A stretch of 64,000 bases of DNA from Amoebophrya sp. A120 (Eukaryota > Protista > Dinoflagellata). Where the stretch lies: contig CAJINV010000001.1 in assembly GCA_905178155.1 (NCBI GenBank), positions 4,302,233 to 4,366,232 of the forward strand, in the 5' to 3' direction. The position numbers and the translations under genes are program-made. Of the stretch, positions 3,001-56,856 are shown piece after piece. Each line of letters opens with the position of its first letter. The first letter of the stretch is position 1. The notes beneath the pieces are model-generated. The model worked only from the letters and a program-made list of their open reading frames with translations, did no database searches and had not been told where the DNA came from.

Positions 3001-5560
3001 CTTTTTTTGCTTGCTCGAAGTCAGAGTGGTTTTCCCTTGCTCTGCAGCCTCTTCGTCACTGTCTTCATCTTCTTCCGATTCCATATCTATCTCGGAGTCC
3101 TCTTCGCCGCTCTGCCATTTTTCCGGAATTTCTGCCTGCTCGTCAGGCTCGCCGATGTTTTCAAAAAATCCTGCAAAATCGAAGCCGAGCTCCTTCATAA
3201 AGGCAGGCAAAGCCTTCTGCTCCAGCAGTTCTGGAGCGCGGAAGTACAAGGCGCTAGCATTCGGCAATCGGCGGAACAAATCAAGTGCCTCCCGCGGATT
3301 TTCGAATTTTCGCGAAAAGAGTGGAAGCCTCTGCTTCTGAGGTTCAGCAGACAATTCGGGACCATTTTCGGCCTGGTGCCTCCGTTCAACATACCCCACA
3401 GCTACCGCTTCCTCGTAAGAAGTCTTGTGTATCGGTGGTTCTTCGGAGGACGATTCTTCAGAGTAGCTGCGGACACGCTTATTCGTGCCGGATGACGTAG
3501 TGGCATTGTTTGCTTTTGCAGCGATAGAAGAAGTTGGATCGGACTCTTTCTTCAGTGCTCTCTTTTTTGCCACCTCTTCCAATCGATCGCATTCGGCCTG
3601 AACTTCGGCCTCGACATCGTTCAAATACCTGCGCAGAGCCCCGGTGCTGCTATGGAGTTCTCAAGTGTTACATTCTCAACTGTTACATGGATTTGTAATG
3701 CAAGACTGGCGAAATTGGAAGGAGGAAGATTGCGCCTCTTGCATTACAAGTTTGGCGCAGATTTAGATGCTGTCTAGCCCTCCCGAAATTTGTCATGCGA
3801 AGCAGCTAGATCATCTGCCGCCCTAAGGTGCTTTTGCATGACAAATCCATGTAACAGTTGAGAATGTAACGTTTGAGAACGCCATAGCTGCTGAGTAAAG
3901 GCTTCAGGGAATCCTTTTTTTGTGTCGTCGCCGAATTTTCCAGATTCGGGTCCATCCAAACAAATACTTCCTGCTCACCACGGCTATTCTCAGGCGTATT
4001 TTGCACCAACGCTTCAATATCCAGATTATACAGGTAGTTCTCCACCAGCGCGTGGTACCGCTCCATGAAGCGCTTCACTTCCATGCGCCTCTTCACGCCA
4101 GCTTGCGTCTCGTCGAAGTTCGGGCCATATAGTAGGCGCCTCCTGGACATGCCCTCGACCTCCATGTCCTCATCCGAATTAATTTCCTCGCTACAACTTT
4201 TGTCGCCACCCATTTCGTCGTCTTTCGTGCTGCCTTCCTCGCTTCCGTCGCCGCTTTTCTCGTCCATCTTGGAAGCGGACTTCTCTTCTCCTGAATTGTG
4301 ACCTTCAGGAAGACCATCGTCTTCCCTGTATGCCGACATTAAGGCCTGTAGGAGCTGCGGCGGGACTTGACCCAGCCGTCGCTCTGCTTCCTGAAACCTC
4401 GCGAAATCAAGGGGCACGTAGCTCGCCAGAGTGAATCCACTGCTGAACCGCGCATTCCATACCTGAAATTCGTCCGCTTTCGTCGCATTTTCCAGATCCC
4501 GGGGGATCGCGACAAAGTGGTCGGGAAACGCAGCTTTTGGCAAGTCCGGTCTCAGGCTGCTGTGCTTCGCCTTCGCGAGCGTTTGTACAGAAGACTTGAA
4601 AACCTCGCCGGCCCACAATTTTAACTTTTCTTTCGAGGTTGTAGAACTGGACTTATTCGCAAAAGTCATCGCATCTTCCAAAACCGGGGCTGAGTGTGAC
4701 AAATGGACCCGACTGTGCGCAGCAATCGGATTGTTGCGGATGACGAGAGCCTGCTGCGCCCAGATGCTCTCGAGAAAATCCTGGCGAAGATTCACCGGGA
4801 AAGCCAGGTTCTCCACAAACTGCTCATCGAGGTCGGGATCGACAGGATACAGGTCGCCGTCCTCGTCTTCATTCTCCTCATCTGAGGAACTACTACCCGG
4901 GAAGTCTTCTTCATCTTCTCCACCCTCCAGGTTGTCGCCGTGTTTTCCTTTTTTCGTTGTCAGCGAGCCGCTTGTTTTCATGTTCTTGTCCTTTGTGCCT
5001 TTTTTCGCCCCCTTCTTGCCTTTCTTGCCCCGGCCTTTGCCTTTCTGTTTCTTCATACTATTTTTGCCCGTTTCAACACGTTCCGAGTCCTCTTCTTGGT
5101 CGGATGACGCGGAGTCTGAGTCGGAAGCTGAGTTTTCGTCGTCCTCGGGTGAAAGTAATGCGTCTGCCTCAGCATCCTTTTCCTCAGCTTTCTTCCCCAC
5201 AGGCGCGTCCTCCTCGTTTTCGGTTTTCTTCGCGTTTTTCCCCGCTCCTGCCTTGTCCCTGCGTTTCCGCTGTGCCTGTTTCGCTTTTCGTACGGCGGTC
5301 GGGTTGAAATACGGAACCAGAATACCGTTCCGGAACACGCGGCAATATTTTTGCAGTGATGGCTGTCGGGAGCGGAACGTGTTCGGGGTAATTTTGCTCC
5401 CGATCGTGTTCTCCCGAATTACTGCCATTTTTACGGACGTGATGTTGACCTTCTCCTTGACGACTTGCTGCATCTTCTGTTGATCAGCCACAGCAAGTTT
5501 GTCAGCCTTCTTCATGCTCTTCATCACGCCTTTTGCTTTTACGCCGGTACTGCCCTTCAT
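1..5560 (-). CDS. JmjC/cupin 2-oxoglutarate oxygenase (ROXA/NO66/cupin_4-like) with long K/D/E-rich extensions; 3' end runs off the window
   Basis: Exons 5560-3887, 3645-1715 and 1029-<1 join in frame (..KPLLSS|TGALRRYLND..; ..AARFL|SSSLGIRA..). Motifs ITDWHQDFQENFTIQLQGVKRW (HxD) and PGDIMYFPSGMWHKV (distal His). Intron 1030-1714 is GT-AG; the other intron is a TIR element. Confidence 0.8.
1158..1257 (-). ncRNA. C/D-box snoRNA, copy A (dual guide)
   Basis: Minus strand: box C ATGATGA (1252-1246), guide AGCATAGTTCACC, D'-like CGGA, hairpin, C'-like TGGCGA, guide ATCCAATTGATAGTC, box D CTGA (1166-1163). Intronic, same strand as host gene. Confidence 0.8.
1327..1419 (-). ncRNA. C/D-box snoRNA, copy B (paralog of copy A)
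   Basis: Box C ATGATGA (1415-1409) and box D CTGA (1334-1331). Both guides and the D'/C' boxes match copy A while the spacers have diverged. Confidence 0.8.
1439..1547 (-). ncRNA. Probable third C/D-box snoRNA
   Basis: 8-bp terminal stem TGTGCCTG/CAGGCACA (1439-1446, 1540-1547), box C-like ATGATAA (1534-1528), box D CTGA (1451-1448) preceded by ATCCAAGAATT, complementary to the conserved SSU rRNA AATTCTTGGAT as I recall it. Confidence 0.6.
3651..3886. mobile_element. TIR element / introner in the JmjC gene (236 bp)
   Basis: ~50-bp imperfect TIR TATGGAGTTCTCAAGTGTTACATTCTCAACTGTTACATGGATTTGTAATGC; TSD GCTGC at 3646-3650 and 3887-3891; removal restores the frame. Confidence 0.9.
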
Positions 5561-6361
5561 TTTGATGATTTTCGAGAGGTCTTAGTTGTCTTCTTGGATG
5601 ATCAATAAATATCAAATTGCCACCTTTGAAGGGATTCAAAGAAAGCGCAAACAAGGTTCTAGACCTAATAGCCAGTCCAGTTTGGATTGCTATTGCAATG
5701 AATTCCTATGTATGTGGCGAAAAACAGATTGAAAACCAGTGTGGTTTCTTCTACTTTCTTCTGCCTGACGTTGCGCACTTGTAAACATTCATTCACGTAG
5801 CTTGTAGACCTTCATTTAGATTTTCGCAGGAGCATTCGTCATATTGAACGAGAAGATGATCAAAAGGTTATCAATTCTGAGCCGACTGACGTTTCAACGC
5901 TCTTTTTTTTATGAAGAAGATCAAGTAAGTTGTCCAGCATCATGCACTGAGATCTGTCGACAATTTCTCAGACCATCTGATCATCTTCCTTTTTCCATGA
6001 AGATCAAGCAAGAGCTCAGGTAGATCGGTCCACAAATCAATTTGATCTGGATCGTTATTTCGAACGAGTTTCTGAAGAATGATCCGACAAACTCAACACA
6101 CGTGCTTCAAAAACAAAGCCGTCGCCGTGCGAAATCTTTCTCTGCAATCAACTAGGCTGTGAAATGTACAAAATAATTCTTCGCTTTCTTGAATCGCGCA
6201 TGATTGATTCTTAACTGCTGTTGTCGTAGTCGCTTGGTTTTTACAAGGAATGGAAATCGATGTGGAAATCTGCTGTAAGCAAGATAACGAAGCCGAGGAC
6301 TCGCAGTTGTTGTGCGCGCAACCGCTAAAGAACGCCAAGGACGAGGACATGGCCGACCTTC

Positions 6362-8890: not shown

Positions 8891-9299
8891 GGCCTTTGAG
8901 TACTTTGTATTTCAAGAATCTTTTGTTCTCGCTTCGATATCATGAACAAGTGGGGAGGGGGGTACGTTTGTGGAATGAAAACGGGTCAGTGAGGTCCTGG
9001 TAGCGATTTTTTTTTCTTTGCGAGAATATTAGCTATGGCTCGACATAAAAAGTAGCTATCTACAGCTATTACGAAGCGAAAGCGTGAAATAAATAGCTGG
9101 TCCTCCGAGTCCGTGTTCTGATAATTTCACATCTACTGTGCAAAAGTATTTCTTGAGCGATCTAGAAGTCCAGGTACTCAGAAGGATCTTCCACCTGTGA
9201 AGATCGTGCTTCAATTCTGAGGTTGGTCGCCGCCTAGTAGCCTCGTGATCTCGAAAGAACACTTGACGCAATCACGACTGCGCGTTGCAGAGACAGAAA

Positions 9300-37387: not shown

Positions 37388-38541
37388 ATTTCTTGTTTGA
37401 TGTCTAAGAAAGTGTAAGTCTTGCGTGTCTATTCTGCCCTTCTAATCCATCGTTACGCATTGTGCTGACGAAATGCCACGGGTTATATGCACCATGACAC
37501 AGACCTATCATCATGCCTCTGCTCCCGATTCATACAAACACGCAAGCAGTCGTGGCGGAATTTGTAGTAGGCTCATTTTCGGGCTGTACTTCTTGCAAGC
37601 CTGGCACTTGTAGCACAATCACGATGGTACGACTGGCGATGGTGGTTCGTGCGAGTGAGTTGCATCGCTAGCGATCATCTTCATTATACAAGCACCGATC
37701 TAGTTCTGGTAGTCCTCACACCGACGGGCGTGTGGATTTGGTCATCACAGATATACAGATGACTTTCGTTTGGATTTGGTCAAACTTTAAAAAACTCGAA
37801 GCAAAAGGCGCACATCGCTGAAGCTGCGCCGTTAGAGGCCCTTTTTGCCTCGCAGGCGTTGACTGATGTATCCATCACTTACTTGATGTGGCCCTGTTGA
37901 CCCGGCTTTCCCCTGTCTTCCCTGTGACAACCCCCCACCTAATCCGAAGAAGAAAGGACATGCCCTGCGAATGATGTAGTTGTTGTTCTGGTTTGTGTTT
38001 ATTGATGAACATCACAGATTTTCATCCCATTGGTCCAGGCCGAGGACCTTCTTACGACGGGAACTGCGGCCTCCTGCTGCTCGTTCCGCAGTTTTTGACT
38101 TCATAGAGAGCCAAAGCGAGCCGAAGAGCTCCTGGTGCAAGAACTCGAAATAAAAGGACGGCACTTCTCAATCTCATCCACCTCCTGTTCAGGAAGATGC
38201 ATTTTTTTAGTGTCTTCCCCCTCGGCCACCAGTTTCCTCACTTTGCGAGTGAGTAACCAGCCGCAAAGCTCGCGTAAGTAAGATTGTAAGAAAGAAAAAA
38301 AGATCAAGATCTTGAGAAGTATCTCGAAGCACAACTACCCGATTCGAATCTATCTCCATCGGCATACGCTGCACTTCGACCACTTCTGGTTCTGCACTGT
38401 AAGAAAATTCGAAAATTCGGCTTGCTCGCTAAAAATTGACTCCGTTAAGGTTAACTACTTTATTGCTACTATTTCTTCACTAATTTTTCTACTACAACTA
38501 CTTGTGTCCACCAACTGACTCGACTACCTGGTCGTCCGCGT

Positions 38542-41500
38542 CTACTTGTAGAGCAGCAACTGGTTGTCGTTTACGCTCTCCAGCGTTGGCCTGCGCTCGC
38601 CGCCACTGATGGGCCTCTTTCCACCCTTTTTCCGCGTTGCCGCCTGCTGTGCGGGCCCGACCGCGCCCACTGCGACGCCTAAGGGTGGAAGCCCCCCGGC
38701 GTCGAGCTGCCCGCCACCGATGACGGCATGGCTCACCCCGCCGGTTTTGCCCGGACGCGTCGAGGGCTGCTGCGCGCCGCTCGACTTGCGGCTGTTCGGC
38801 TGGGTGGGTTGGTGGGCGGAAACAGGGTTCAAGACCCCGACGTTAGTATCCTCAGTAAAAACGTACCCACACCAGAGTCAAGATGGCAAATCTGCTAGAC
38901 AAATCAGCCAGCTTTGGTCGTTTGGCATGACAAGTTCCTCTTCGTAGTGTAATCCTGTTTAGGTAGTTCAGCAGCTTCACAGATCTAGTATATCATTCTT
39001 ATCAAACAAAAAAAGTTCGTCACGATCACTTATGCGCATTTTTGCAATACAAAATTTTCTGTCATGCGTAAAAATGCATAACAGCCAAACTTCATAAGGG
39101 ATTTCCCTAGTGTTTCTGCAATACAAGGAAAATTTGTGGTGCGAATAAAAATTTGTAATGCAAAACCTGCAAGTTAGTGACTGTGACAAACTTTTTTCTT
39201 TCCATAATTCTGATTGTAGCATCACAAATTCCAAAACACGACTAGACAATGCCTCTCATGGCGCTCCGCATGACAAACCTTTTTGGCATGCAGATTTGCA
39301 TGACAACTCTGGTGTGGGTACGTTTTTACTCAGGATAGTTAGGCCCGGACACCCCGAACACCTTGTTGTAGTTCTGCTCGCGGTTGACTAACTCTAACCG
39401 GTATCAAATGCAAATATGTTTGAGTCTGGGAGATTGCGAGCTTTGTCATGCTAGTGCGGCATGACGCTGAGGTCTGTATTGCGTGGCCGCGAAGAGCTCC
39501 TCTTGCCTGTCATGCAAAAACGTAGTTTCTCATGCAGAGTACGCAACTCAGAACCACGGAAAAACTTGTCATGCTGACCAGCGCATTTTTACAGTGCACT
39601 CAGCTCACTATTTTTCCCTTTCTTGCATCACAAGTTTCCAGACCCAGACACATTTGCAATGCATAACCGGTAGTACTGCATCTCGTCGCGCAGCTGGTTG
39701 AACGCGGTTTCGCGGTCCCGGCACTCCTGGTGCAGTAGACGGATTTGCTCGACGTCTTCGGGCCGGGACGGTCGGTTCTCGAACATTTGCTGCAGCTCCA
39801 AGATCCTGGCCCGCAGTTGCTCCCCTTCGGCCTCAATGTCGGCGCGGATCTGTTGTGCAGCAAAAGCAATGGTTTCGTTTAGACTCTTACTGATTTATTT
39901 GATGCCTACTGATGAAACACTCTCGGTATCGTACTACATCGTTTGCTTATCGTTCACTACAACAAGCTCGAAGTAATTCGGATACTCTCGTACTAAGTAT
40001 CTCGGTAGCCTCGTGATTTGAAAGAAAAGAGAAAGCAAAGAAAGGAAAAGAAGAAAAGAAAGAAGAAGAAGAACCTCGATGGTGAGACTGGCTTTCTTTT
40101 GCAATCAGGTGCTGTTTACGAAGAATAAAAACCTTCCCCCGGTAGGTATCTGGACACGATACCTCTAGGCTTCGAGAGTCTGTTTGTTCGTATATCAGTC
40201 GCATTTTACGAGATCTTAGCATGGTAGCGGAGTTTTAGGCTAATCACCTAGGATCCTCCACAGAGCCCCCCGGCTGTAGAAAAAATTTACTTGTCTCAAG
40301 CTTTTTAGGGCCTACCGTTTTCGCACTGTTTAAACAAAACCAACACCATGGAACGCAGCAGCGGGAGCAGTAGCAGCAGCGGACACAGCAGTGGACGCAT
40401 TCCGGTGCCGGTGTGGACCCCGACAATGGGCCCACGGGAGTGGAAGGAAAAACTCCAATTGTGGTTGCTGGCATCGGAGTTATCGGAACATTTGATCTGC
40501 CCCACCATCATGCTGCAAGGCATCGAGCCCAACCATTACCATCCCCTTTTGGTTCGCCAACTTTTACAAATGGACCCGCGCACCTGGACCATGTCCATGA
40601 CCCCGGACTACGAAGGCAAGGAAGGAGAAGACGCCGACTGGATTTCGGGCATTCGCACCATGACCCCGGTGCAACGCTTAGAACGTGCGGTGACGTTTTT
40701 GGAACCGGTCGACGGGTTGGCCGAAGAAAAGCGCTACCGCCGGGTAAGCACTTTCGAACGGAAGGGGAACGAAGACTACCAAACCGCAACCACCCGCTTC
40801 AAGGCTTACGTGGTTGACCAGAAAAACGACCAGCGTCCGATGGATGAACGCGCGATCGTATCCGCCTACTTTTCGGGGATGCGTTTCGACCTGAACGATT
40901 CCAAGACGCTGCGCAACCACTTCGACTTGGCGAAATCGGGACAGGGAGAACACACGTTCCGCCACCTTTGCCAGCTGGTCGAAACTCTTTTGGTTCCGAC
41001 CTCTTTGGACCGCGCGGGAAACCGGTACGACCGACAGGGGGACGCGATTATGGCTATCGCGGGTTTGGCACAGATCCCGCGCTGGAAGGGAAACGGCAAG
41101 GGCAAGCACGGACGGAACGGTGGCAACGGCAAGGGAAACGGAAACACGAATTTTCAGTACAAACCCCAACAACGCAATGGTGGGAAACCGACCAAGGCCG
41201 GCGGGAAAGGAACGGGCCAGGGACAGAACGGCGGAAAGCCGCAGCGCAACGGCGGAAACGGCAAGGGCAACGGAGGTACGAAAGGCGGCCCCGGTGTTGG
41301 AAAAGGGAACGGAAACGCGGCGAAGTGCTGGATTTGTGGTTCCAACCAACACCTGCGGAAATCGTGCCCCCACCGTGGAAACGGCAGCGCGATGCTGGCC
41401 CAGGATGCTGACGCCGACGAGACGGAACATGCGGCCTGACTATCCCCACCGAAAACCGATGGAAAGTATGAAAATTTGAAGATGGACGATTTGCATCTAC

Positions 41501-44500
41501 GACGCACCCCGGTGGCGAATGAAAAAATCTCAATTATTCCGTGTCCCGAATCCCGATGTCTATGCAAGAACGAAAAAGCATCTATCGACCTGAATTCCAA
41601 TGGTAGGACGAAAATCAATCAATCCCTGCAAGCTTTGAAAAATTTGAAGACCGGTGCTGTTGCGACCGAAAAAAAAAAGCAATCCGAGAATCCGCATGGT
41701 GTTACGATGAAAAATTTGATGATGAGCCCCACCATTTTGGGAAAAATTTTGGAAAACGGAACCCCCCCGCCGAACCCCCAGACAAAGTCTACAGCCGCGG
41801 GCGGACGATTCGGACTGGTGTTATTTGTCCGAGCTAACCGAGGAACAAACGAAATCCTACGAAAAGTTTGCCGGGATTTTCGTTGTCGACCCGGGTTGCA
41901 GCCGCAGCCTTGTGGGCGAAGCTACCTTACAGGCCTTCCGGTCTGTGTTCCCGCATTTTGTGGGAGAAGAATTTCAACTACCAAAAAAGTTGAGTTACAA
42001 GTTTGCCGACGGCTTCACGAAAAAAGTGGAAAAAGGAGTCAGCATACAGATAGGCAGCGCCTGGCGGACGTTTGCCGTGCTGACTCCACCCGACACGCCT
42101 TTCCTTTTAGGGTGTGACATTTTGGGCGGAAGTGTAATCGATTTGGAAGGGTTTGAAATTCGAAAAGGAGAGGAAGTAATACCGCTGCAAAAACGAAACG
42201 GACTCTACGTGGTTGATTTTCTGAAAAATTTTGAAAAAATTTTCGGAAGTGAAACGGGCTACCACTACGCAAATGCCGGAACTGCTGAAGAGCTGGCGTT
42301 TTTCACGTATTCCGAGGTAAAGAAATTGCACGAGCGCAATTGGCATCTGCCGGCCAAGCCGCTGACTTTTCGATATTCCGAAGTTTTTGAAAATGAAGCG
42401 GAACGGAAAAAGTTCGAGCAGATCGCCGCGCTGGTTGTTGAAAACTGCCCGACCTGCGCCCAGCTTTTGCGCATGCAGCCAAAACCGAAATTGGGAGGAA
42501 AGAAAATTTCTGCGACGGCGCCCAATGAGTTGGTCTGCATTGACACTGTGTGCTTCGTTTGGAAAAATAAAAAGTGCGCAGTCCTGCACTTTGTGGACGC
42601 GCATAGTGGGTGGTCGTTTGCAACCATCTGCGAAACGGAATCCAGTGGGTCCGAAGTTGTTCGAGGATTGCGATTGTGGAGAAAAATCAATGGGTCGCTG
42701 CCAACCGCGATTCTCACCGACAACGGTACGGAGTTCATCAATGCAAAAGTTTTTGGCTACCTGAGTACCGTGGCAGGAGGTGTAATCCATTATCGCAGCC
42801 CTGTGCGCGAGCATGAGTTCATCTCTGAATCGCATACGCGCGCTTTGGGGATGTTGGTGGACAGGTTGTGTGGAAGTCCGGCAAGCCACTACACGAGCCT
42901 GGACTTTGTTGACATTCTGCAGGAAGCATTGGTGTGCAAAAACAGTTATGTCCGATCTTCCGGCCACAGTTCTCAATTTGTTCAATTGGGAAACGATCAC
43001 AGTCAGGACGTTTTGCGCGACCTTGCTCCTGGGCCTTCAATCGCGAAAATTTCAAAAACGGACCAGGAATTTGCTTCCCAGCGCGCGCAGCTTCGGAATG
43101 AGGCAGCAAAACTGGTGAACTTCGAGGCACAAACAAAAGGAATTTCCGAAATTTTGAACAACCAGAGCCAACACGCAAGTGCGGAATTTTACTACAATGG
43201 CGACCGAGTTTTTGTGAATGTGGACACGAAACCAGAAGACAAAACCACCGGGCGCACTCGGTGGGCTGGTGCTACTGTCGTGGGAACAAAAGGCACGAAG
43301 ACAGTAGTGGTCCAGTTCGATGATGGAACCATGAAGCAGGCGCACGCGCGAGAGTGCCGCCGCCTTCCGCCATCTGAAATTGAGGTCGTTGAAGTTTTGC
43401 CCGAAGAGTATCAAGATTTGGCCACAAATTTGGAGTCGCAGTTGTTACAAATGCAGCCAGAAGAAGAGCAAGAAAATGCAGAAACCGATGCTACGGACGT
43501 AGACAAAATTGTAGTCGATGTGATGAAGGCCAACGCGAAAAACCTGCACAGCGCCGCAGCCGCGCGCGACGACACAACCAGGCGCATGGCAGTGCAAAAG
43601 TCGCTTTTTGGGTCGGTAAAAGTGATCCAAGCTAGCTGCAGAATTGGCGCTACACGATTCGACGAACCAGTTTTGATCGCGGGCAACGCACAGGCAAACC
43701 GCGAAAAACTGAAGACCGTCCGCACGGTCCACGCGACCTTCACACCAAAGGGCAAACTGCTGGAAGTGAAATACCTAAAAGGGCCAAAAGTTATCCAGCG
43801 AGCTCAAGAACCCCGCGGCGTTTTCGATATCTGTTGTTCACGAAAATCAAGTCACTGCCGCGCGTGACCTCTCCAACTGGAGAGGGGTAAACCAGAAAAC
43901 GAAAAGCAGGGATCTGGATCCGAAGTTCTACCGCGAGGTCCCGCCCGACAAACGGAACTTGGAAAGTTTAGGAGGTTTGGCAATGGTGGAACTGCAATGG
44001 CTGGCGCACTATCTCAGTATCCCCCTGGCAGCACAAAAAGACGAATTGCTGAAGCGCATTAAGTCGCATTACGAACACACCGAGGAGCTGGCATTCTTTT
44101 CGCTTGGAGCACCAGAAGCGGAATTCGCCTACCTGTCATCTCAACAAAAGCAATCCCTGAGCCTGTTTCAAGATTTCTTTGCTGGGTTTGTTGATGACAG
44201 TACCACGCGCGCCGAGTTTTTGCCAGGCTCGCGGCCGTTCGAGCTGATCAATTCGACTTTGAATTTGCCGAGCCTTGCGGGTGTTGTGATTCGAAAAAAC
44301 TGCCAGCGCGTCCCAACAAAAACCGGTCTGGAAAAACGGCCGGAGATTCCGAATCAGCACTCAGCTACGTTCATTCTCATTCCAAACGCGCCCGCCCGCT
44401 CTGCTTCTGTCGGTGAAGCAGTTTCCAAGCGCGATCTGGTAGTGAGTTTGGTTTTTGAAGATCCCGCGTTCAAGTCTGTTCCGACCGAGCCGACGGAAGT

Positions 44501-47500
44501 CAAGGCCGAGAAAAAAGAGTCAGAAAAAATTTGGCTCAACCTGCCGCCGGAGCAGTTAGCCAAAGGAACAGTCGAGCTGGATTACAAGTGGTCTGTGCAA
44601 AACGGACTGAGTAAACTGGCGCTGGAGGCTTTTGTCAATGAGTTTGGAAGTTTGGAAAAGCGCAAAGTTTACAAAATAGTGGAGAAACCGCTTGGGCAGA
44701 AGTTGATCACTAGCCGCGTGATCTTCGCCGTGAAGTTAAATGCCGATGGGTCTCTCAAACGTGTCAAATGCCGCTTCGTGCCTCGCGGGTACATGGACCC
44801 CCGCAAAACCACTCTTCGTTTAGATCAGGACGTGGTGAGCCATGAAGGGCTGCTTTTGAGTCTCTGTCTTGCGAGCAAAAACCGATGGCAATCAAAGACG
44901 ACAGATTTTGAGACCGCCTTCCTGCAACAAAACGGATTCAAGGAAGGGGAGCCCAGGCCGTTCGTCGCCTTTCCTCAATTGCCTGAAGAGTGCGGCCCTG
45001 AGTTTTACGAAGCAATGAAATGGGAGGTCAATTCATGCTTGGAGCTGTTGATGGCACTTTATGGCTTGGTGGATGGACCTCGACGTTGGTATGTTGCCTT
45101 TTCTGACTTCCTCAAAGAAGTTGGATTTCGGCAACTAGGTGCTGACTTGGGATTGTGGGTGCTGGAACTGGATGAAAAAGACGAAGTCGTGAGGCGCCCG
45201 GACCAAGAAAATTCCAAGAAATCGGCAGAGAAAATTTTGGCCGAAGAAGTTCTGGGAACCGCTCCCATTGGTCGAATTGCTGAAGTTGTAAATCTTCACG
45301 TCGATGACAAGCTTACGGCTGGAGATAGCGCATTCGATCGGTATTGGCAAAAAGTTGCTGATCGTTTCAAGGTGGGTTCGGTCGATGACATCGATGAAAG
45401 CGGTGTCATTTTTTGCGGAAAATGTATCAGAAGAACCAAAGACGGTGGGTATGAAGTGGATCAAGAACATTATGTCGCAAAGTTCGAGCAAATTGCGGCA
45501 CCAGCAGACGCAAAAGACGAAGATCCACTACCTGCGGAATACCACACCAAGTACCGCAGCGCCATCGGGCGTTTGAACTGGATTTCCTACCGCACACGAC
45601 CCGACCTGACCTACGACACAAATTCGCTTTCTAAGCACGCTACAGCGCCGACATGGTCGCACCTCCACCAGCTCAATAAATTGATCCGGAAAACTTTGCA
45701 CAGCAGAAGCGTACGACTGAAAATACCGAAACTAGAGGGCGATTTGCAAATAGTTGCCTATGCAGATGCATCGTTTAACCGACTACAACCCGAAGCCCCA
45801 TGCATTGGGTCAATTTATTGGCTGAGTTCCATCCCAGACAAAGCCGAAACGCGAGGGGTGGACCAAGTTCACAAAATGGAGAAACCGACCGGGGCAGCGA
45901 TCAGCGCTACTGGAGTGCCGATCTACTGGCGCACGACGAGCGTAAAACGGAAATGCGATGCTATCCTGGATGCCGAAACCTTGTCGACGCAATTCGCCGC
46001 GAACGTGGCGAGATACCTCAGCGCCATCGCGATTTCCTTGGGTTTGGTTAAACCTACCGACCCTATCGTGATGCTGAACGACAACAACTCACTCGTGTCC
46101 CACCTGAAAACAAATAATCGCTGTCATAGCATGCGACTTGCAGCAAACTGGTACGGCCTGCGACAGCTTTACACGAGTGGGAGCATGGTGATTCGCTGGG
46201 TATGTGGCAAGACGCAAAACATCGCTGACGTTTTGACGAAAGGAAAAAGCCCTCTACTTCCATTGCTTTTACAAAATTTGCATCTTAATAAAATCTCCAT
46301 TCCGCGATGAGTTATTATATTTTTTCACAAATTCAGACTTTTAATTTGTCATGCTATTTTACATTCTTTTACAACTTCTTTATCATATGGTCAGCGCATT
46401 CTCATCGTGTTTCGCATTACAAATTCCGTTGACTACTACTCATACTCATCTTTTCTCCTTTTCCGCATTACAAATCTAACATTTACACTTTATTTTTTTT
46501 GACAAAATGATAATCAAGCCTCTTCCTGTAGCACCTTGAGTCAAATGATACGAGTACTCCCGTGCTGTTTTTGTTTTGCCATTTTGGCAGTTTTACGCTC
46601 TTCGATTTTATCTCACGTTCACCATTGCGATTCGGATTGTCATTGCTTTAATTTTTTTTGCTTTTCGCATGACAGATTCATCTTTTGCTTATTTTTATCT
46701 CACATTTTCAGCATCACATATTCCATATTTTCCTAGTGTTATGAATATTTTTTTTTGCTTTCTAAGCGGTGTTTGCTTCATTTCATATCATTTTGTTGCA
46801 AACTTTTACAATATTCAAATTTCCCGCATTACAAACCAACTCTTTTATTTCCCTTCGTGTCATGTTTCGCATTACAGATTTGGTTTTTATATTTCATGCA
46901 CGCACCTACATTTTTCAAATTTTTCTACTCTTTCTTCACGTTTGGTTGAGCCTTCTTACGAACTTAGGTTTTTATTTCCCTAGGTCGCTCCACATAGAAA
47001 TCTCATATAAATACTGGCCATATTTATTTTCGATTTTTCTTAGTGGGGGGAGTGATGAAACACTCTCGGTATCGTACTACATCGTTTGCTTATCGTTCAC
47101 TACAACAAGCTCGAAGTAATTCGGATACTCTCGTACTAAGTATCTCGGTAGCCTCGTGATTTGAAAGAAAAGAGAAAGCAAAGAAAGGAAAAGAAGAAAA
47201 GAAAGAAGAAGAAGAACCTCGATGGTGAGACTGGCTTTCTTTTGCAATCAGGTGCTGTTTACGAAGAATAAAAACCTTCCCCCAGTAGGTATCTGGACAC
47301 GATACCTTTAGGCTTCAAGAGTCTGTTTGTTCGTATATCAGTCGCATTTTACGAGATCTTAGCACCTACTAACTTATTTTCAGCCGAACAATGATGGCTT
47401 TACTTGTCAACCCAAGCTTTTTTCGCTCGCGCCTTCATCTGGAAGAGTAGAATAAACACCTGATCAAAACTAGTTATGACCCAAGTAGTACCTGATTCAT

Positions 47501-50500
47501 CCTCGCGACTTCGTCCTGGTGATTGGCCTCCAAGTTCTGCTTTTCTGACTCAAACGATGCTCTAATCTGTGCCTCTCGCTTGTCTGCGTCAGCCTGTGGT
47601 AAGAGTTCACGAGAACAAGCAGTGGTGCGTTGATGCATTTAGAAACGGCGAGTCGGACAACGTCCATGATCTTCCAGGATGAAAAAAAAAGCCGAACAGA
47701 CGAACGACTCATCTGAGAAGAAATTCATTATGAAGATCGATCAAAACAAAAATCTTGATGTTCTTTGCCGAATTATTACCTTCAGCCTCCTCAAGCTCTC
47801 GTCTCCTGATTGCATTAAATCTTCTATTCGCTTTTCCGAGGCTACCAAATCCGCCCGCAGTATCGCTATATCGCTCGTCAACTCGTCGATCTTGGAGGAG
47901 CTGCACCGCAGGTCTTTTTCCAGGGCGGCGCACTTGGCGTCGGTCGCCCGCTTCTCATCGGCGAGTTCCTTGTGCCGTTCCCTGGCGGCTTGCGTTTCCG
48001 CCTCGTGCTGCTGCCGCAGCTTTTCCATTTCCATCCGCAGGTTCCCGTCCAGCTGCGCCAGCTCCCCGTCGTGTCTCGATTTCAGCTGCTGCAGCGACGC
48101 CGTGTGTTGGTCCTCGAGCGCGGCAATCTTCTCCGTGAGCTCGATCTGCAGACGCGTTTAGGAGGTTTTGATACGATTTATTCTTCATAAACCCTTATTT
48201 TTACTTTTAGTGAGTAGCTCGCCGGAAAGATGAAGGACCTTTGTCTTTCACTTTCTAGTACTGTCAAACAGGAAGATGAAAACATCAATCACTACAAAAG
48301 CGTATATCACGTACGTTGTGCCGCTGCTTGACCCGCTCTAGCTCCGCGCCGTGCTTTTCGTAGATGTCCGCAATTTTCTGTTGGTGCTGTTGTGTCAGTT
48401 CCTGTACCATTTTCACTGCGTCGTCCTTGGCGTCGTTCAGCTGCCGATTCATCTGCGCCGTCATGAGGTCCATCTTCTGCTTCGCCTCCGTGGAAACTTC
48501 CCCCAAACCCCTTTCCTTGTCCTGCAGCTGCTTTTCCAAGGAATCGATGCTCTCGTCCTTCATCACTAAATTTCTTTCCAGCTCCTGTTTCTCGTTCCTC
48601 ACGAGTGTGAGATCCTTTTGCAGGTTCGTGTTGTCCTGCTTTGCCACCCGGCACTCCTCCGTTTCGCGGGACAGATCCTCGCGCATCCGCGCGATAGTAG
48701 CGGCGTGCCGTTCATCCGAGGAAAGATTCTTCGACTCAAGGTTTTGGACACGGTCGCGCGCAGTCTATGTTTTTATTTTCAGAAACCATGATTGACACTT
48801 TCATTTTCATCGCAAATCGACAAAAATCGTAATCGATTCAAGTGTACTGTAGTACTCAGCTGCAATGTGTTCTTCTACTTCTAGTACTAGTTGTTCCATC
48901 CTGATCCTGGTATCTTCTTTACTTGCGGTAATAAAGAACAGGAACAAAACTCATGATACCTTGAGTTGTTCGCCGAGACCCGCTGCCTCCGCCTCCTTGG
49001 CAGCAAGGGTCTCGCGCACCGCGTGGAGCTGCTTTGCGGTGTCGCCGCCGAGATCCTCGAGGTTGCGCCGCTTTGACTCCTCCTCTTCTAGTCGGCCCTG
49101 CAGAGTCGCCACTTTCTGTTCGAAGTCTGCGTGTTCTTTTTCCCGCGCCGCACTGGTTTCGTGGCGGTCCCGATCTCGATCGGTGATAAAGCTGCGCTGA
49201 AGCTCTTCTATTCGCTCGTTGTGCGCTTTTGTCAGTTCTTCTTTTTCTTTCGTATACTTTTCGCTCGCCGCCTCTGTCTTTGACGCAAAGTCGGCACTCA
49301 GGGACGCTTGCAGGCTTGCAATTTCCGCCTTGTGCTTTTCTATTGTCGCGTCCAGCTCCTGTTTGTGCGCTGCTTGTTTTTCTTTCAGCTTCTTCTCTAG
49401 TTCTTCTATTTCAGCTGTGTGCTTCTGCCGCAAGATGTCAATGTCGGTCTTGGCCCCACTACTGGTTTCTTCTATCTGCTTGCGCAAGGCGTCTATCTCA
49501 GACTGCAACTTGTCACGTTCCGCTCGGCTCGAGTCTCGCTCGCTCGTCAAGGTGTTTGCTTGCTCCTCCAACCGCTGTGCTCGTGTGTCCAGCTGATATT
49601 TTCATGGAAATGAAAAACGGTTGAATTTCATTGAAAGAAGCTACGCACAGACGTGCGACCATCAAAAAAACAAGTTGATGGAGAGAACCAGTAGCCGCTA
49701 CCGCTACCGAACAACAGTGTAGTACACAACGTACTCGCAAAAAATATACAAAAATTTACCTCTGCTCGCCGTTTCTCCGTTTCGCTAAATTTTTTCTCGA
49801 CCGCCTCTTTCCCGTCCTCCAGCGACTTTTTGGTTTCCTCCCAGCGCTTTTTCTCCAGCGCAAAGGAGTCTCGTAGTCTCTCGACCGTGTCCTGGGCTTC
49901 CCGGGAAGACATGCTGGCCTCGGACTTGTATATCGTAAGGAAAGATCCCCCCTCCCCATATTGAAAAGATATGTTTTCGAAAATTTGCGTTGCTGATTTG
50001 AGGTCACAAATCACATCTGTCTTGCAAGAAGAGAAGGGCAGAAGCTTCCGCCCCATTATGAAGCCGGTTTGTCATGCTGTTGGGACTACAGGGCAGCCGT
50101 TTGCCATGCTGAGCAACTAGATTCATACGCCCTTACCTACCCTGGGGATCTGGTCGCAATGCCTCCCTGCAATACACAGCTGATTTGTGTACACAAATCC
50201 AGCATCAGAAATTCTGTTTTGATATGGGGAGGGGGGATTTTTCCTCACAATATTGTAGCGCGAGAATTCTCTCTCCCGGTCGGCCGCTTTCGTCGTTTCC
50301 TCGTCTATATCAAATGTAAAAATGTCTGGGTCTGGAAGAATACGCGATTTGTCATGCAGCTTTTCCATGACCCGTGAGGTCTGGAATGCAGGACATAGCG
50401 TGACAGATTCTGTGCGATCTTTCCCATGCCTATCCTGCATGAGAAACTGCCTCCCGACTTGGTCAAAACTGGACGACTTTTGGTAATCATGCAACACAGA

Positions 50501-51663
50501 TTTTTGCATGCTTCAGATTTAGCACGACAAATTGCATTCTTCCAGACCCAGACATTTTTGCATTTGATAGTCTAGCGAGGCTTGAAGCTTCGCGACTTGA
50601 CTGCCCAACTCGGTCTTCATCTTCAGCAATTCCGCTCGTTCTGATTCTAGTCGCGACGCAGTCGCGGAACTACCCTCTCTCAGCCTTGACAAGTCTTCCA
50701 CCACCCGATCCCGGTCCTCCGCGGTCTGTTTGCGCCGAGTCTCGGTGTCCTCCAGCTCGGACTCTAGTGCCGTTTTGTCGGCGATCGCTTTTTCCAGCGA
50801 CTTTTGTTTTTCTGCGAGCTGCGAAGCCAAATTTGCACTGTTCTCGTCGCGCTCCTCTACTTTTCGCTTCCAGTCATTTTCGGCGTCGCTGCGCGCACCC
50901 TCGAGACTGCGGATCTGTTGAAATTATGGTGTGCATGATTCTTGTTGGTGTCCTTGCAGCAAAGAAATTTTCCGGCAGATAAGTATAAGTAATCTCAACA
51001 CAATCTTTAATTTTCTATTTCTCCTTGTCGTGATGTGGATTCCGGAATTATACACGACACGACGAGCAGCACAGCCTAGCACTACATCAGCACTGGACAT
51101 CAAAAATAGATTGATACTTTCGCATTCAGCAAGACTCTTTCTTCGTCCCACTTCGTGCTTTCTGCCTCCAACGTGCCCGACAACGTCGCTTTCTGGTCCA
51201 AAAGCGCCTGGCTGTGCTGGTCCACTTTTTGCTGCAAACTTCTGTCAAAGCTCTCCCGCTGCTCGCGACACCGCACCCGGAGCTCATCGAGCTCCTCGGT
51301 CAAGGTTGTGACCCGGTCGGTCCAATGTCGGAAGGACTCCTGCTCCTTTTTCACTTGGTGGAGTTTCAGGTCTTCGATCTCCTTCAGCATGTTTTGCTTT
51401 TCTGACTCCAGTTTTTCCTTCATGCCGCGACTCTGCTCCCGCACCGCCGTCTCGTTTTTTACCTTCTCAAACGCGTTCCAGGCGTCCTGGATTTTCGCGT
51501 TGCAGTTGCGGACGATCCCCTCGATCTCCTGCTCGTACGCGTTGGAAACCGACCGCAGATGCAGGTCCGCTTCGTCATTTTTCGTGTTCAAGTGGAAAAT
51601 GACCTTCGTGAGCTGCGCAATCTTCTTGCTCATCTTGTGGAAAGTGTCGTCGCGCTCCACCAT
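38542..51663 (-). CDS. FAM184-like coiled-coil protein, multi-exon
   Basis: N-terminal KMSKKIAQLTKVIFHLNTKNDE; C-terminal RPSRPEDV..YYRLELVNREQNYNKVF..PNVGVLNP, both FAM184 hallmarks. GT-AG introns (e.g. 50915-51117, 49593-49759), four introner introns and one Copia-containing intron. Confidence 0.85.
38847..39337. mobile_element. TIR element / introner in the FAM184-like gene, carrying a nested element
   Basis: 32-bp TIR TATCCT(C/G)AGTAAAAACGTACCCACACCAGAGT; TSD GTTAG at 38842-38846 and 39338-39342; removal gives GPN|VGVLNP. Confidence 0.95.
39000..39206. mobile_element. Nested TIR element (207 bp)
   Basis: Imperfect ~55-bp TIR TATCAAACAAAAAAAGTTCGTCACGATCAC.. / TATGGAAAGAAAAAAGTTTGTCACAGTCAC..; TSD ATTCT at 38995-38999 and 39207-39211. 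Confidence 0.85.
39402..39665. mobile_element. TIR element / introner in the FAM184-like gene (264 bp)
   Basis: Left end TATCAAATGCAAATATGTTTGAGTCTGG, right end CCAGACCCAGACACATTTGCAATGCATA; TSD ACCGG at 39397-39401 and 39666-39670; removal gives MQYYR|LELVNRE. Confidence 0.92.
39910..40221 (+). repeat. Copia-2 5' LTR
   Basis: Direct repeat of 47053-47364 with 3 transitions seen by eye. Confidence 0.97.
40222..40232 (+). other. Primer-binding site, tRNA-iMet type
   Basis: TGGTAGCGGAG directly after the 5' LTR, complementary to a ..CUCCGCUACCA tRNA 3' end. Confidence 0.75.
40348..41439 (+). CDS. gag: Copia-2 Gag
   Basis: 363 aa with GKG-rich repeats and a CCHC knuckle (CWICGSNQHLRKSC). Confidence 0.9.
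   Translation: MERSSGSSSSSGHSSGRIPVPVWTPTMGPREWKEKLQLWLLASELSEHLICPTIMLQGIEPNHYHPLLVRQLLQMDPRTWTMSMTPDYEGKEGEDADWISGIRTMTPVQRLERAVTFLEPVDGLAEEKRYRRVSTFERKGNEDYQTATTRFKAYVVDQKNDQRPMDERAIVSAYFSGMRFDLNDSKTLRNHFDLAKSGQGEHTFRHLCQLVETLLVPTSLDRAGNRYDRQGDAIMAIAGLAQIPRWKGNGKGKHGRNGGNGKGNGNTNFQYKPQQRNGGKPTKAGGKGTGQGQNGGKPQRNGGNGKGNGGTKGGPGVGKGNGNAAKCWICGSNQHLRKSCPHRGNGSAMLAQDADADETEHAA
41825..43867 (+). CDS. pol: Copia-2 Pol part 1 (protease, integrase)
   Basis: VVDPGCSRSLVG..PFLLGCD (PR); HERNWH..CPTC, VCIDT, LTDNGTEF (IN). Confidence 0.85.
   Translation: MSELTEEQTKSYEKFAGIFVVDPGCSRSLVGEATLQAFRSVFPHFVGEEFQLPKKLSYKFADGFTKKVEKGVSIQIGSAWRTFAVLTPPDTPFLLGCDILGGSVIDLEGFEIRKGEEVIPLQKRNGLYVVDFLKNFEKIFGSETGYHYANAGTAEELAFFTYSEVKKLHERNWHLPAKPLTFRYSEVFENEAERKKFEQIAALVVENCPTCAQLLRMQPKPKLGGKKISATAPNELVCIDTVCFVWKNKKCAVLHFVDAHSGWSFATICETESSGSEVVRGLRLWRKINGSLPTAILTDNGTEFINAKVFGYLSTVAGGVIHYRSPVREHEFISESHTRALGMLVDRLCGSPASHYTSLDFVDILQEALVCKNSYVRSSGHSSQFVQLGNDHSQDVLRDLAPGPSIAKISKTDQEFASQRAQLRNEAAKLVNFEAQTKGISEILNNQSQHASAEFYYNGDRVFVNVDTKPEDKTTGRTRWAGATVVGTKGTKTVVVQFDDGTMKQAHARECRRLPPSEIEVVEVLPEEYQDLATNLESQLLQMQPEEEQENAETDATDVDKIVVDVMKANAKNLHSAAAARDDTTRRMAVQKSLFGSVKVIQASCRIGATRFDEPVLIAGNAQANREKLKTVRTVHATFTPKGKLLEVKYLKGPKVIQRAQEPRGVFDICCSRKSSHCRA
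43959..46310 (+). CDS. pol: Copia-2 Pol part 2 (RT, RNase H); frame open from ~43779
   Basis: VKCRFVPRGY, DFETAFLQ, ALYGLVDGPRRWY, LHVDD, TRPDL, YADAS, NIADVLTK. Confidence 0.9.
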   Translation: MESLGGLAMVELQWLAHYLSIPLAAQKDELLKRIKSHYEHTEELAFFSLGAPEAEFAYLSSQQKQSLSLFQDFFAGFVDDSTTRAEFLPGSRPFELINSTLNLPSLAGVVIRKNCQRVPTKTGLEKRPEIPNQHSATFILIPNAPARSASVGEAVSKRDLVVSLVFEDPAFKSVPTEPTEVKAEKKESEKIWLNLPPEQLAKGTVELDYKWSVQNGLSKLALEAFVNEFGSLEKRKVYKIVEKPLGQKLITSRVIFAVKLNADGSLKRVKCRFVPRGYMDPRKTTLRLDQDVVSHEGLLLSLCLASKNRWQSKTTDFETAFLQQNGFKEGEPRPFVAFPQLPEECGPEFYEAMKWEVNSCLELLMALYGLVDGPRRWYVAFSDFLKEVGFRQLGADLGLWVLELDEKDEVVRRPDQENSKKSAEKILAEEVLGTAPIGRIAEVVNLHVDDKLTAGDSAFDRYWQKVADRFKVGSVDDIDESGVIFCGKCIRRTKDGGYEVDQEHYVAKFEQIAAPADAKDEDPLPAEYHTKYRSAIGRLNWISYRTRPDLTYDTNSLSKHATAPTWSHLHQLNKLIRKTLHSRSVRLKIPKLEGDLQIVAYADASFNRLQPEAPCIGSIYWLSSIPDKAETRGVDQVHKMEKPTGAAISATGVPIYWRTTSVKRKCDAILDAETLSTQFAANVARYLSAIAISLGLVKPTDPIVMLNDNNSLVSHLKTNNRCHSMRLAANWYGLRQLYTSGSMVIRWVCGKTQNIADVLTKGKSPLLPLLLQNLHLNKISIPR
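47053..47364 (+). repeat. Copia-2 3' LTR
   Basis: Follows the PPT and precedes TSD CCTAC. Confidence 0.97.
49931..50252. mobile_element. TIR element / introner in the FAM184-like gene (322 bp)
   Basis: TIR TATCGTAAGGAAAGATCCCCCCTCCCCATAT / TATTGTGAGGAAAAATCCCCCCTCCCCATAT; TSD TTGTA at 49926-49930 and 50253-50257; removal gives FSRYK|SEASM. Confidence 0.93.
50308..50569. mobile_element. TIR element / introner in the FAM184-like gene (262 bp), same family as 39402-39665
   Basis: TIR TATCAAATG(T/C)AAAAATGTCTGGGTCTGGAAGAAT; TSD GTCTA at 50303-50307 and 50570-50574; removal gives ASLD|EETTK. Confidence 0.95.
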
Positions 51664-52957
51664 TTTTTCGGGACCACGCGCTGACGGGCGCGCGACACGT
51701 GGTCTTGCTTACTACTACCTGGCCCTGGTGTGCTGTGCTCCACCCATCAAACTAAATTAGTACTACACGCGGCAAGGGCGAAGCGCCCACAACATCGGTA
51801 ATAGCGCCAGGCGAGGAAGAGGGCCGGGGAAGTAGTTCTTTACCATGAAGAAAATGCGCGGAGAGTTCGTCGTTTTTAACGCTTCTCTTCTTCAAAAAAA
51901 TCGCTTGGCCGGTGAGGCTCCATCCCCCATCTGCAGCCGGCAACTGACGACTCGATTACTTTTGCGTGCATCTTTGTGCAGGTGTCAGGTCGTAGGAAGG
52001 AATCTTCAGAACGCGTCGAATCCATTTCTGACAATCTTCCCGAACGTCAGCCTGTACCACCCGGCGCCGTGCGCTTCGAGTCATGAATTTCAAAAAGTCC
52101 AAAGTGCGTCAATGGCTCCTGTGGCGGCGTTGGTGTAAGAGCAATCACAATCAATTGAAACTTACGATCATCCGAGAGGAGGAACATACTTACTTACACT
52201 GTATCATAAGGCGACTTATTTTCACTCACGATGTCTCTCCGGGATTTTCGAAACGAAAAAAAAAACGAAAACGACATACGTTTTCCTCTTCGATCAAGTA
52301 GCATCACGATTGCAGAGAGTGCGATTCATCTTGATGTAGTTCTCCCTCTTTCACTACGAGAACAAGCCTTCTCAATAAATATTGAGAAACGACAACGACT
52401 ACGAAAAGAAGCTCAAGCTCCACATCGAACATGAAAATACCGTGGGCAAATGAGCAAAGATCCGCTCCGGGACGACGGCAGACGAGCGTCTCAAGTTTAT
52501 TTTGACTTTGGACTTCTTATGTGGTGAGATGATGTTTCGCAGTCTGGTCGTGGTTGATTCGAGCCATACTTCTGCTTCTGCTAGATGGCAATATATAGCT
52601 CTTCTAGCCCTGATAGGATTGGTGTCGTGGTTCTTGCGCCATAGTAATACTATGCGAAGGTTTATTCCAGAAGTTTTTCAAGACCTGGTGTCGTGGTCGC
52701 TTGTTCCATGGACCGTTTCAAAAAATGGTGAAGAAGATTCGTCTTAATTCAGTCGCTATGGTGAAGATGTTGAATTGTAAGTAGAAGTGTAGAAGCGATT
52801 CACAGTGGCATCAAAACAATGGTGCCAGTGTTTGTTGTTCCTGTCAACATGTGATAGTATTTCCTTCCATTTCGAAACATTTCCTAGCTGTTGATTCTTA
52901 CTGCTGTGCTACTAGCTCTCTCGTTGAAGGTCGTCGCGAACCACAATTTTCAAAAAA

Positions 52958-55025: not shown

Positions 55026-55597
55026 CTTGCCTGCTTTTTTCGGAAGTTACTACTACCCGAACGAACTGCTCCAAAAACTACTCTTTTCGCCGTCGATAAA
55101 AACCGTACTGACTTCTACTCGACGATTATCTTCCCCACCAGCAATGTGGGAGGTGCTATGTTCGTTAGTCTGGTGCCGCTGTCCTCGTCGTTGTTGAAGA
55201 GAAATAATAGCTGTTGAGGGTCTAGTCGCACTTGATGTAGTTCCACTTCCTGCCACTATGTGTAGAAGCAGGTCGCTTTTTGCAATAGTCAACAACAGTT
55301 CTTCCTCGTCATCCGAGTTTTTTCGTGCTGAAGAGGCCGCACTCGTTAGAGCAGTTGCTCCAGTCGCTGCGCGGTGCGGGGGGATGAAATACAGCAGGTC
55401 GTCTGTTCTTCTACCATGAAGAAGACTCCTCCTCGTGTTCTTCTTGCTGGTAGCACTACTAGCAGCTGATGCCACTTCCTTCAGCTGTAGTATTCTGCTG
55501 TTGCGCGTTTTGCGTTGCTGGGGCGTCGCCCATCCGAAAATGGACCTCTTCCTTGGCTTCGGCTTCGAAACATGCACTTCTATTCCTGCTGCTCGTG

Positions 55598-55920
55598 TAT
55601 CAAAATGAAAAAAGCCCCCACCCCATATCAAATGGGAAATCTGTGATGCAGGATTTGTGTACACAAATGCGCGCTGTCATGCAATACGGCATCGCAACCA
55701 GATGCGCAGCCTACGGAGGGACATTTGGGTCTAGGTGCTTAGCATTACAAACGGCTGTCCTCTAGGCCCAACAGCATGCCAAACCGCTTCCATAATGGCG
55801 CGGAAGCCTCTGCGTTTGTCTTCTTGCAAGACAGACGTGATTTGTGGTCTCAAATCAGCAAGACAAATTTTCGAAAGCATGCCTTTTTGATATGGGGAGG
55901 GGGGATTTTTCCTCTCAATA
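55598..55920. mobile_element. TIR element (323 bp), inverted homolog of 49931-50252, upstream of eIF5
   Basis: TAT...ATA ends with CCCCCACCCCATATCAAA / TTTGATATGGGGAGGGGGG; TSD TCGTG at 55593-55597 and 55921-55925; internal sequence aligns with the reverse complement of 49931-50252. Confidence 0.92.
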
Positions 55921-56856
55921 TCGTGGCCCAGGAACTCTCATACAAGCAGGAACTTCTGTGGTCACTGCTGCGAGGGAAAGAAGAACTATGCTCCGCGCGA
56001 CGAGTTCCGTATCAAAACCCGAGGCGTGATTCGATTGTTGTGTTTTATTCGATAGTCTGAACTAGAAACGGTTCAGACACGATACTCGGTCTTAATTTGT
56101 AATGTTTTCGTTCCTGTGCAACTAAAACAGATGAGTTGAGTGAAAAATTCTTGGGCGCAGTTGTTGCTTCAAAGATTTCGTAAAAACACCAAGTTATAAC
56201 AGTTGCTAGCAAAGCATAAGCTTCGAGGTTGGTATCGCGATTTACAGAGTGTAAGATCGGGAGGTTAGTATGGGGGCCAAAATGGAGCCACTGTGAAAAA
56301 CTGAGGAGAAGTCGAAAATTTGGATTTGTCGCAGGCGCAGGTGGGTGATCTCTTTACATGTTACTTCTGATGTGGTTCATTTATCAATCTACATCTTCTC
56401 ATTTGGTCTCGTACGGATCAAGATTTAGCTTTGCACGAGGCGCGTTCGTTTCTTTTTGCGTACGGCTCCTCGCATATTATATTTTGGAGAGACATCGAAA
56501 TATTCATACGTATAGACCGAATCTGATCTCGGTGAGAATTTCGCGCTCGCTCAAACCGATCTTGTGTGCGATTCGGCAACACGTATTGACTTGATTGTTC
56601 TCTACGTGTACCATTCATGATTAGCGGTGAGTGCCTAAGCTACTTCCGCAAGTACTTCTTGTTCTTTCTCTTTTCTTCCATATTCATTTTTCACTCGCGT
56701 AATAAATGCGATGGACGTCGTCCTGTTAGAAGTCAAACTATTCTAGTCGCTTTCTGTCGCTGTCGCTCTGTCGTACGGGTACTTTTCTTGGTTCGGTTAC
56801 TTAGGCACAACTTCTCAGCTGGCTTCATCCACGAGGCCGAGGCCAAGCATCTGCTC

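Follow-up and report, generated by a model that had tools for sequence, protein, structure and literature searches.

Elements and host genes in the window

The 64,000-nucleotide stretch of the Amoebophrya sp. A120 genome analyzed here (contig CAJINV010000001.1, positions 4,302,233 to 4,366,232; hereafter the window, to which all coordinates refer) contains minus-strand genes that are interrupted by short elements with terminal inverted repeats (TIRs). An earlier note, made from the letters of the window alone, had listed nine such elements, and all nine were located at the starts that it gave, each lying between two identical 5-bp copies of a free sequence, the target site duplication (TSD). 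The elements have TAT..ATA ends, with one CAT..ATA exception, and their TIRs are about 28–53 bp long. A scan of the window that made no assumption about the ends, requiring only a 5-bp repeat abutting an inverted repeat with at least 14 of 20 bases paired, returned 16 matches, including these nine, as compared to 1–6 matches in each of ten shuffled windows.

The first two elements interrupt long minus-strand open reading frames (ORFs). E1 (3651–3886, with TSDs 3646–3891; TSD GCTGC; TIR of about 53 bp) lies in an ORF at 1615–5581 with 563 plus 678 codons and a JmjC/cupin domain downstream. E2 (24046–24263, with TSDs 24041–24268; TSD CAAAG), the element with CAT..ATA ends, lies in an ORF at 19098–25659 with 463 plus 1649 codons (more than 2100), for which no Pfam match was obtained. 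E3 (36151–36448, with TSDs 36146–36453; TSD CCCGA) splits the domain of a gene of the tubulin-tyrosine-ligase (TTL) family (35222–37387, minus strand). Once E3 and one TSD copy are deleted, the product is identical to the annotated A120 protein P0001 (621 of 621 residues, gap-free), and the alignments of five homologs run uninterrupted across the site.

The next five elements are located in a single minus-strand gene (38104–52114) for a FAM184-like coiled-coil protein, A120 protein P0007, which also contains canonical GT-AG introns. E4 (38847–39337, with TSDs 38842–39342; TSD GTTAG) consists of a 279-bp core into which E4n (39000–39206, with TSDs 38995–39211; TSD ATTCT) is nested, and it is followed by E5 (39402–39665, with TSDs 39397–39670; TSD ACCGG), E6 (49931–50252, with TSDs 49926–50257; TSD TTGTA) and E7 (50308–50569, with TSDs 50303–50574; TSD GTCTA). 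The predicted product and P0007 are equal over 846 residues, and collinearity extends to the orthologs; the ortholog P0010 in strain A25 carries the FAM184 Pfam family PF15665, and with P0008 the spliced product is collinear over 747 aa without a gap. Two host proteins are thus 100% identical to annotated A120 proteins, which places the elements in the A120 genome, and since the host products match these proteins, the public annotation already omits E3–E7. The last element, E8 (55598–55920, with TSDs 55593–55925; TSD TCGTG), belongs to the same family as E6 and has the opposite orientation.

All eight top-level elements interrupt minus-strand frames, one more than the seven counted previously. 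Retention of the element leaves 2–11 in-frame stops per site, and removal of the element plus one TSD copy opens a long minus-strand frame at each of the eight sites. As the earlier note had stated for seven of them, GT-AG, GC-AG and AT-AC borders are absent on the coding strand from every register of the TSD (0 of 8 top-level elements). In-frame GT-AG or GC-AG pairs are present within about 30 nt of every element; at E1, an in-frame GC-AG alternative is 9 nt shorter than the exact deletion.

The transcripts of the elements are predicted to form long hairpins that join the element ends; the RNA of E7 is predicted to fold as one long hairpin (z -9.9). A search with the TIR of E7 in viral contigs gave 0 matches.

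Precise absence of the elements from RNA-type contigs

Evidence for removal comes from the contigs of four sequencing runs (X3–X6), which represent two samples from one study and are guessed to be RNA. In all four runs, the contigs skip 303 nt at E3, 496 nt at E4 including E4n, 269 nt at E5, 327 nt at E6 and 267 nt at E7. Every skip corresponds to the element plus 5 nt, at five sites with six elements, and E4 with its nested copy is skipped as a single unit. At E8, the contigs match the window up to 55592, which, like the last matching base at the other sites, directly precedes the TSD, and they then carry 311–384 more letters. Removal was thus observed directly for E3–E7 and indirectly for E8, with E1 and E2 lying outside the compared stretch.

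The same contigs hold five canonical GT-AG joints. The use of nearby GT-AG or GC-AG sites had been named as one observation that would speak against precise removal; such pairs exist, and in the RNA-type contigs they are unused at the five sites E3–E7. Together with the protein alignments of the TTL and FAM184-like genes, these data confirm that six elements (E3–E7 with E4n) are absent to the base, with one TSD copy per site, from RNA-derived contigs. No joints indicative of circles or partial removal were seen among the 11 joints in the RNA-type contigs, which drop rare forms.

A further run, X1, was taken to be of the DNA type because of its even depth over silent DNA. Here, single contigs pass from the flanks 26–29 nt into the elements at a depth of 40–45, the level of single-copy DNA. 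The nested element E4n is seemingly missing from other copies of the E4 family, and X1 contains a joint, 38996>39210, with one other letter.

The same grammar in further loci

A scan with the inverted repeat of E7 recovered at least 149 stretches, stored as 144 loci with 609 kb in total. These loci were reached via the TIR of a single family, the matches listed all belong to one public assembly series whose strain may differ from A120, and the host frames were predicted with a codon model trained on the window. The elements are repeated and non-coding; each of the nine has 9–226 matches in these loci, the best copies being 77–94% identical.

Among 438 unique short TAT..ATA pairs, an exact 5-bp repeat flanks 269 and a repeat with at most one mismatch 317; a 4-bp and a 6-bp repeat were found once each. 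The length of the direct repeat is sharply 5 bp. The 268 copies of at most 600 bp fall into 17 families, the largest of which (n = 134) was favoured by the search. Positions 11–13 of the inverted repeat are A at frequencies of 0.89–0.94 in this set, which is biased to one family and for which the scan required TAT. The element set shows a terminal pattern of TAT followed by seven variable positions and three or more A, with E1 and E3 lacking the full A run.

For 180 copies with clean flanks, 149 were scored as coding on both sides, 31 of these with strand disagreement, which left 118. Removal of the element plus one TSD was favoured by the independently predicted frames of the flanks in 99 of the 118, the other two classes holding 11 and 8. 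In 116 confident coding hosts, registers giving GT-AG, GC-AG, AT-AC and GA-AG numbered 5, 1, 4 and 8, which matches the random-insertion null of 4.8 (± 2.0), 3.0, 3.5 and 5.3. In the same hosts, the element lengths are spread over the three phases (47/35/34), the composition of the TSD equals the exon background, and the five largest families occur in both exon orientations (37:22, 8:6, 2:7, 4:4 and 5:6). These results support the view that the borders are set by the repeat architecture rather than by splice dinucleotides.

Mismatched TSDs were also identified: among 415 copies, 67 have one mismatch and 33 have two, and the TSDs of 35 of 192 predicted exonic copies are imperfect. Synonymous TSD mismatches at first seemed to be in excess, as would suit a sliding cut, but this excess was gone when the frame was chosen with the TSD masked (13 of 29 versus 14.3 expected). 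The cut register could not be read from the direction of the mismatches.

The copies can be densely packed or disturbed. At least nine elements lie 50–700 bp apart in locus L051 (3325–9521), mostly in an apparent single gene. Two copies of the E7 family (L053:6001–6972 and L035:3862–4492) have inner insertions flanked by direct repeats of 13–19 nt, which include the motif described below or a one-mismatch form of it; one insertion is A-rich at its end, and these insertions are possibly retroelements that target the motif.

A nine-base motif inside the elements

The interiors of the elements had been described as mostly unrelated. This description needs correction, since E6 and E8 are of one family and since all nine elements share the exact 9-mer TTGTNATGC, the extended form of which is AAYTTGTVATGC. 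There are 21 copies, including four in E1 and three in E2, whereas the shuffle mean is 0.2 and the maximum 2 in 1000 shuffles. In the further loci, the exact 9-mer is present in 253 of 268 copies and in 15 of 17 families. Elsewhere it is rare, with one occurrence in the remaining 54 kb of the window, a Copia retrotransposon excepted, and none in eight canonical introns identified in the RNA-type contigs. A sole case among the 268 copies (L056:2404–2789) has TAT..ATA ends, a perfect inverted repeat and a 5-bp TSD, and no TTGTNATGC even at one mismatch.

Inward-facing copies of the motif cluster 32–33 and 40–45 bases from the element ends, with none before 26, a spacing that suggests helical phasing. 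A role as a strand-specific RNA or branch signal was rejected, because the motif has no sense-strand bias (126 versus 112) and each exact form is missing from the sense strand in 24–25 of 116 copies. The motif columns are conserved between lineages (0.047 versus 0.125 differences per site), a contrast inflated by the choice of columns from the majority sequence. Singleton changes in exonic copies showed no such conservation (0.026 in the motif columns versus 0.032, p = 0.12). Taken together, these features point most probably to a function of the motif in transposition, as a putative subterminal transposase-binding site, and less to one in removal.

A Copia neighbour and the search for a mobilising enzyme

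A young, full-length Copia long terminal repeat (LTR) retrotransposon (39910–47364, plus strand, 7455 bp) lies antisense in a canonical intron of the FAM184-like gene (39850–47491). Its LTRs of 312 bp differ by 3 mismatches (99% identity) and have TG..CA ends, and its TSD is CCTAC (5 bp). It contains a gag-like ORF, an integrase and a reverse transcriptase, as well as primer-binding-site-like and polypurine tracts; the gag, protease-integrase and reverse transcriptase parts are in different frames. The insertion occurred in a canonical intron of 182 nt, and the resulting intron of 7642 nt is spliced at GT-AG. A minor joint at 44435–47492, from the host donor to a cryptic acceptor inside the Copia element, was observed in X3 only, at a depth of 3.3.

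The 3′ untranslated region of this element (46311–47052, plus strand) holds four exact and four one-mismatch copies of TTGTNATGC, with six of the eight in the same orientation. The shuffle mean for exact copies in these 742 bp is 0.04, and 0 of 1000 shuffles reached four. We considered the possibility that the region is a decayed TAT..ATA element; it has no TIR remnant and the matches are of motif size only. A binding factor shared by the Copia retrotransposon and the elements is a lead from one example.

A long TAT..ATA element with a transposase or recombinase had been proposed as a target for searches; none was found in the 609 kb of loci. Because no autonomous element was found, the term superfamily that the earlier note used for the elements is unproven. 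Five TAT..ATA pairs of more than 600 bp were rejected as candidates: in L051 (6.2 kb) and L049, separate elements had been paired falsely, as is probably also the case for L061, and L053 and L035 are the short copies with inner insertions. The motif clusters in L018 and L019 represent decayed copies, in which no clear ORF was seen; the segment L019:8600–12400 is non-coding, with many decayed elements and scattered copies of TTGTNATGC.

Relatives of the Copia integrase were not found by word search, and no Copia ORF matched the 144 loci. A phmmer search with the integrase gave 86 matches, and among the ten that were looked up the sole named one was an A25 polyprotein of 1573 aa. An integrase-only A120 protein was not found by word search or among these ten of the 86 phmmer matches.

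Comparison with known introns and transposons

The canonical borders of U2 and U12 introns (GT-AG, GC-AG or AT-AC) are not those of the window elements. Transposons of the Ginger2/TDD type resemble the elements in their TSD of 4–5 bp, but their termini are TGT..ACA, whereas those of the window are TAT..ATA.

The elements that come closest have been described in the same strain, and the statements below refer to excerpts of the cited sources. The introner elements of A120 have inverted repeats that begin with TAT and continue with seven variable bases and three or more A, and direct repeats of 3–5 bp, with a 5-bp example in the legend of Fig. S19; their non-canonical borders are supported by RNA-seq, the mechanism was left open, and U1 snRNA was undetected (Farhat et al., 2021, PMC7789003). 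The window elements are like them in strain, TAT start, direct repeat, removal without canonical sites and repeated non-coding nature. The identity of the host proteins to those of A120 and the fit to this description thus substantiate the suggested link to repeat-bounded Amoebophrya introners. Unlike the sharply 5-bp repeat found here, the repeat length is variable in the excerpts of that study, which contain no internal motif, orientation analysis or border null (Farhat et al., 2021, PMC7789003). In a later listing, A120 introner family 38 is given as “5-bp TSD, TA/TA Termini” (Gozashti et al., 2025, PMC12130899). It shares the genome, TA..TA ends and 5-bp TSD with the window elements, and similarity of its ORF to Copia and Gypsy hints at an integrase-type mobiliser, but it is a single family of about 810 bp. 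In the 23 of 58 A120 rows of that listing covered here, most of the 22 besides family 38 are labelled “TIR DNA, Unknown,” and their automated TSD calls vary (PMC12130899). Other Amoebophrya have mainly canonical introns (PMC12005148).

IS3EU/GingerRoot transposons likewise have TA..TA termini, and their transposases are integrase-related DDE enzymes (PMC10045372). Their TSD is usually 6 bp, whereas 269 five-bp repeats and one of six bp were seen among our 438 pairs; the excerpts report no intron role for them, and no transposase was found for the window elements in the 609 kb of loci. Symmetric fungal stwintrons are without TSDs (PMC8469720), unlike the window elements.

The nearest working analogy is provided by the nonconventional introns of euglenids, which have paired ends, no GT-AG borders and a probable origin from miniature inverted-repeat transposable elements, and which coexist with canonical introns (PMC12501133, PMC11282704). 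Those of Euglena provide a precedent for borders defined by a stem plus a spacer (PMC12501133). However, they have a CDG/CH'G signature and a purine at the exon start and are released as circles (PMC12501133, PMC11282704), whereas the window elements have TAT/ATA ends, a free 5-bp TSD and no border preference. Falsitrons, finally, have a hairpin and short direct repeats and are deleted with one repeat in cDNA; genes with falsitrons work unspliced, whereas the host frames in the window need the deletion (PMC8240250).

It follows that the novelty claimed at the outset was overstated. The phenomenon is already known, RNA-supported and described in this strain (PMC7789003), and family 38 has been listed (PMC12130899). 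Literature searches did not find TTGTNATGC, the strict 5-bp repeat, the orientation data, the border null test or the Copia link, some of which may be held by the figures of Farhat et al., the remaining supplement rows or Roy et al. 2023. Nothing relevant to the mechanism of element removal was found in the literature searches.

How the elements may be inserted and removed

Our preferred hypothesis, held with roughly even confidence, is that the elements are short non-autonomous TAT..ATA DNA transposons located in exons and likely excised from pre-mRNA by a hairpin-guided, probably spliceosome-independent cut-and-join process. During insertion, an integrase-type DDE transposase encoded elsewhere would bind the ends and the repeated subterminal TTGTNATGC, and make a 5-bp staggered cut. 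During removal, the paired inverted repeats would draw the two exon ends together and a factor would measure from the base of the stem, the overhangs removed on both sides together amounting to 5 nt; as this is an odd number, the cuts could not be placed symmetrically about the stem. A structural cutting rule is the simplest, because the TSD sequence is free, there are no border bases and either orientation is tolerated.

Several points weigh against this hypothesis. No enzyme, intermediate or excised RNA was seen in the RNA-type contigs, and all RNA evidence consists of contigs from two samples of one study that are guessed to be RNA. The removal of E8, a copy in the opposite orientation, was observed indirectly only, and E1 and E2 are outside the RNA comparison. 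The further loci were reached via the TIR of a single family and have predicted host frames, and the singleton test is weak, as the elements hold several copies of TTGTNATGC. An autonomous element was not found in the 609 kb of loci, and A120 yielded no transposase in the study of Farhat et al. (PMC7789003). A hairpin with a direct repeat is a known template for reverse-transcriptase slippage (PMC8240250). Moreover, A120 retains nearly all spliceosomal proteins as well as U2, U4, U5 and U6 (PMC7789003), and a modified spliceosome could make use of the fixed UAU or AUA ends.

This last point leads to the strongest alternative, which is possible though less probable in our judgment, namely that the elements are released as lariats by a modified spliceosome without U1, which would rely on the hairpin and the fixed UAU or AUA end instead of normal splice-site recognition. 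In line with it are the retained spliceosomal components and the undetected U1 (PMC7789003), the activity of canonical splicing in the same transcripts, and the fact that a register flush with one element end yields one constant border. However, the second border is free sequence, the TSD composition is that of the exon background, the dinucleotide pairs do not depart from the null, and elements are tolerated in either orientation. In addition, E4 and E6 are skipped though no close copy of TTGTNATGC is located near the RNA 3′ end.

It appears very improbable that RNA polymerase II skips the elements co-transcriptionally by realigning TSD to TSD across an extruded DNA hairpin. Such skipping would remove the element with one TSD copy whatever the orientation and without a need for dinucleotides, but the TSDs are imperfect in 35 of 192 predicted exonic copies, and the RNA-type runs hold element ends joined to flanks from other loci, which resemble precursors, with DNA carry-over being possible.

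We regard it as very improbable that DNA excision in one life stage, like that of the internal eliminated sequences (IESs) of ciliates, removes the elements, with transcripts made from repaired templates. The earlier note had offered a second splicing route or IES-like excision; the latter part is not supported. Precise, repeat-bounded removal would be expected from IES-like excision, but it is unlikely because X1 reads into the elements, stage-specific excision and rare empty sites being possible. Amoebophrya is not known to divide germline from soma, which also counts against it.

The least probable explanation is that the skip is a reverse-transcriptase artefact and that real mRNAs keep the elements, the genes being dead or rescued by ribosome hopping between matching codons of the TSD copies. 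Slippage is conceivable from cDNA data alone, and the hairpin with short flanking direct repeats is that of falsitrons, for which skipping can affect as many as 70% of the cDNA reads (PMC8240250). However, retention would lead to stops at all eight sites, whereas the host proteins are undisturbed and align collinearly with their orthologs, and the number of such introns reported across the genome is in the tens of thousands (PMC7789003). Moreover, in 8 of 29 TSDs with a single mismatch, the one in-frame codon that lies fully within the TSD differs non-synonymously, which hopping could not tolerate if the genes are active.

Implications for intron removal in Amoebophrya

More than 60% of the introns in A120 are removed without splice signals (PMC7789003, PMC11282704), and the grammar added here makes the manner of this removal testable. 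Copies with mismatched TSDs can reveal the true cut register from existing RNA-seq data, TTGTNATGC can be used as bait for a binding protein, and the tolerance of both orientations narrows the range of possible machineries.

A bolder and rather tentative hypothesis is that all TAT..ATA introner families in A120 represent one integrase-type system with a shared binding motif, which is also present on the Copia element, and that an orientation-blind, spliceosome-independent ruler enzyme removes any such hairpin. If true, the ruler enzyme would be a general licence for transposons to insert into exons. A nuclear splicing route of a second kind, present in an alveolate by convergence with the euglenids, would be a major result.

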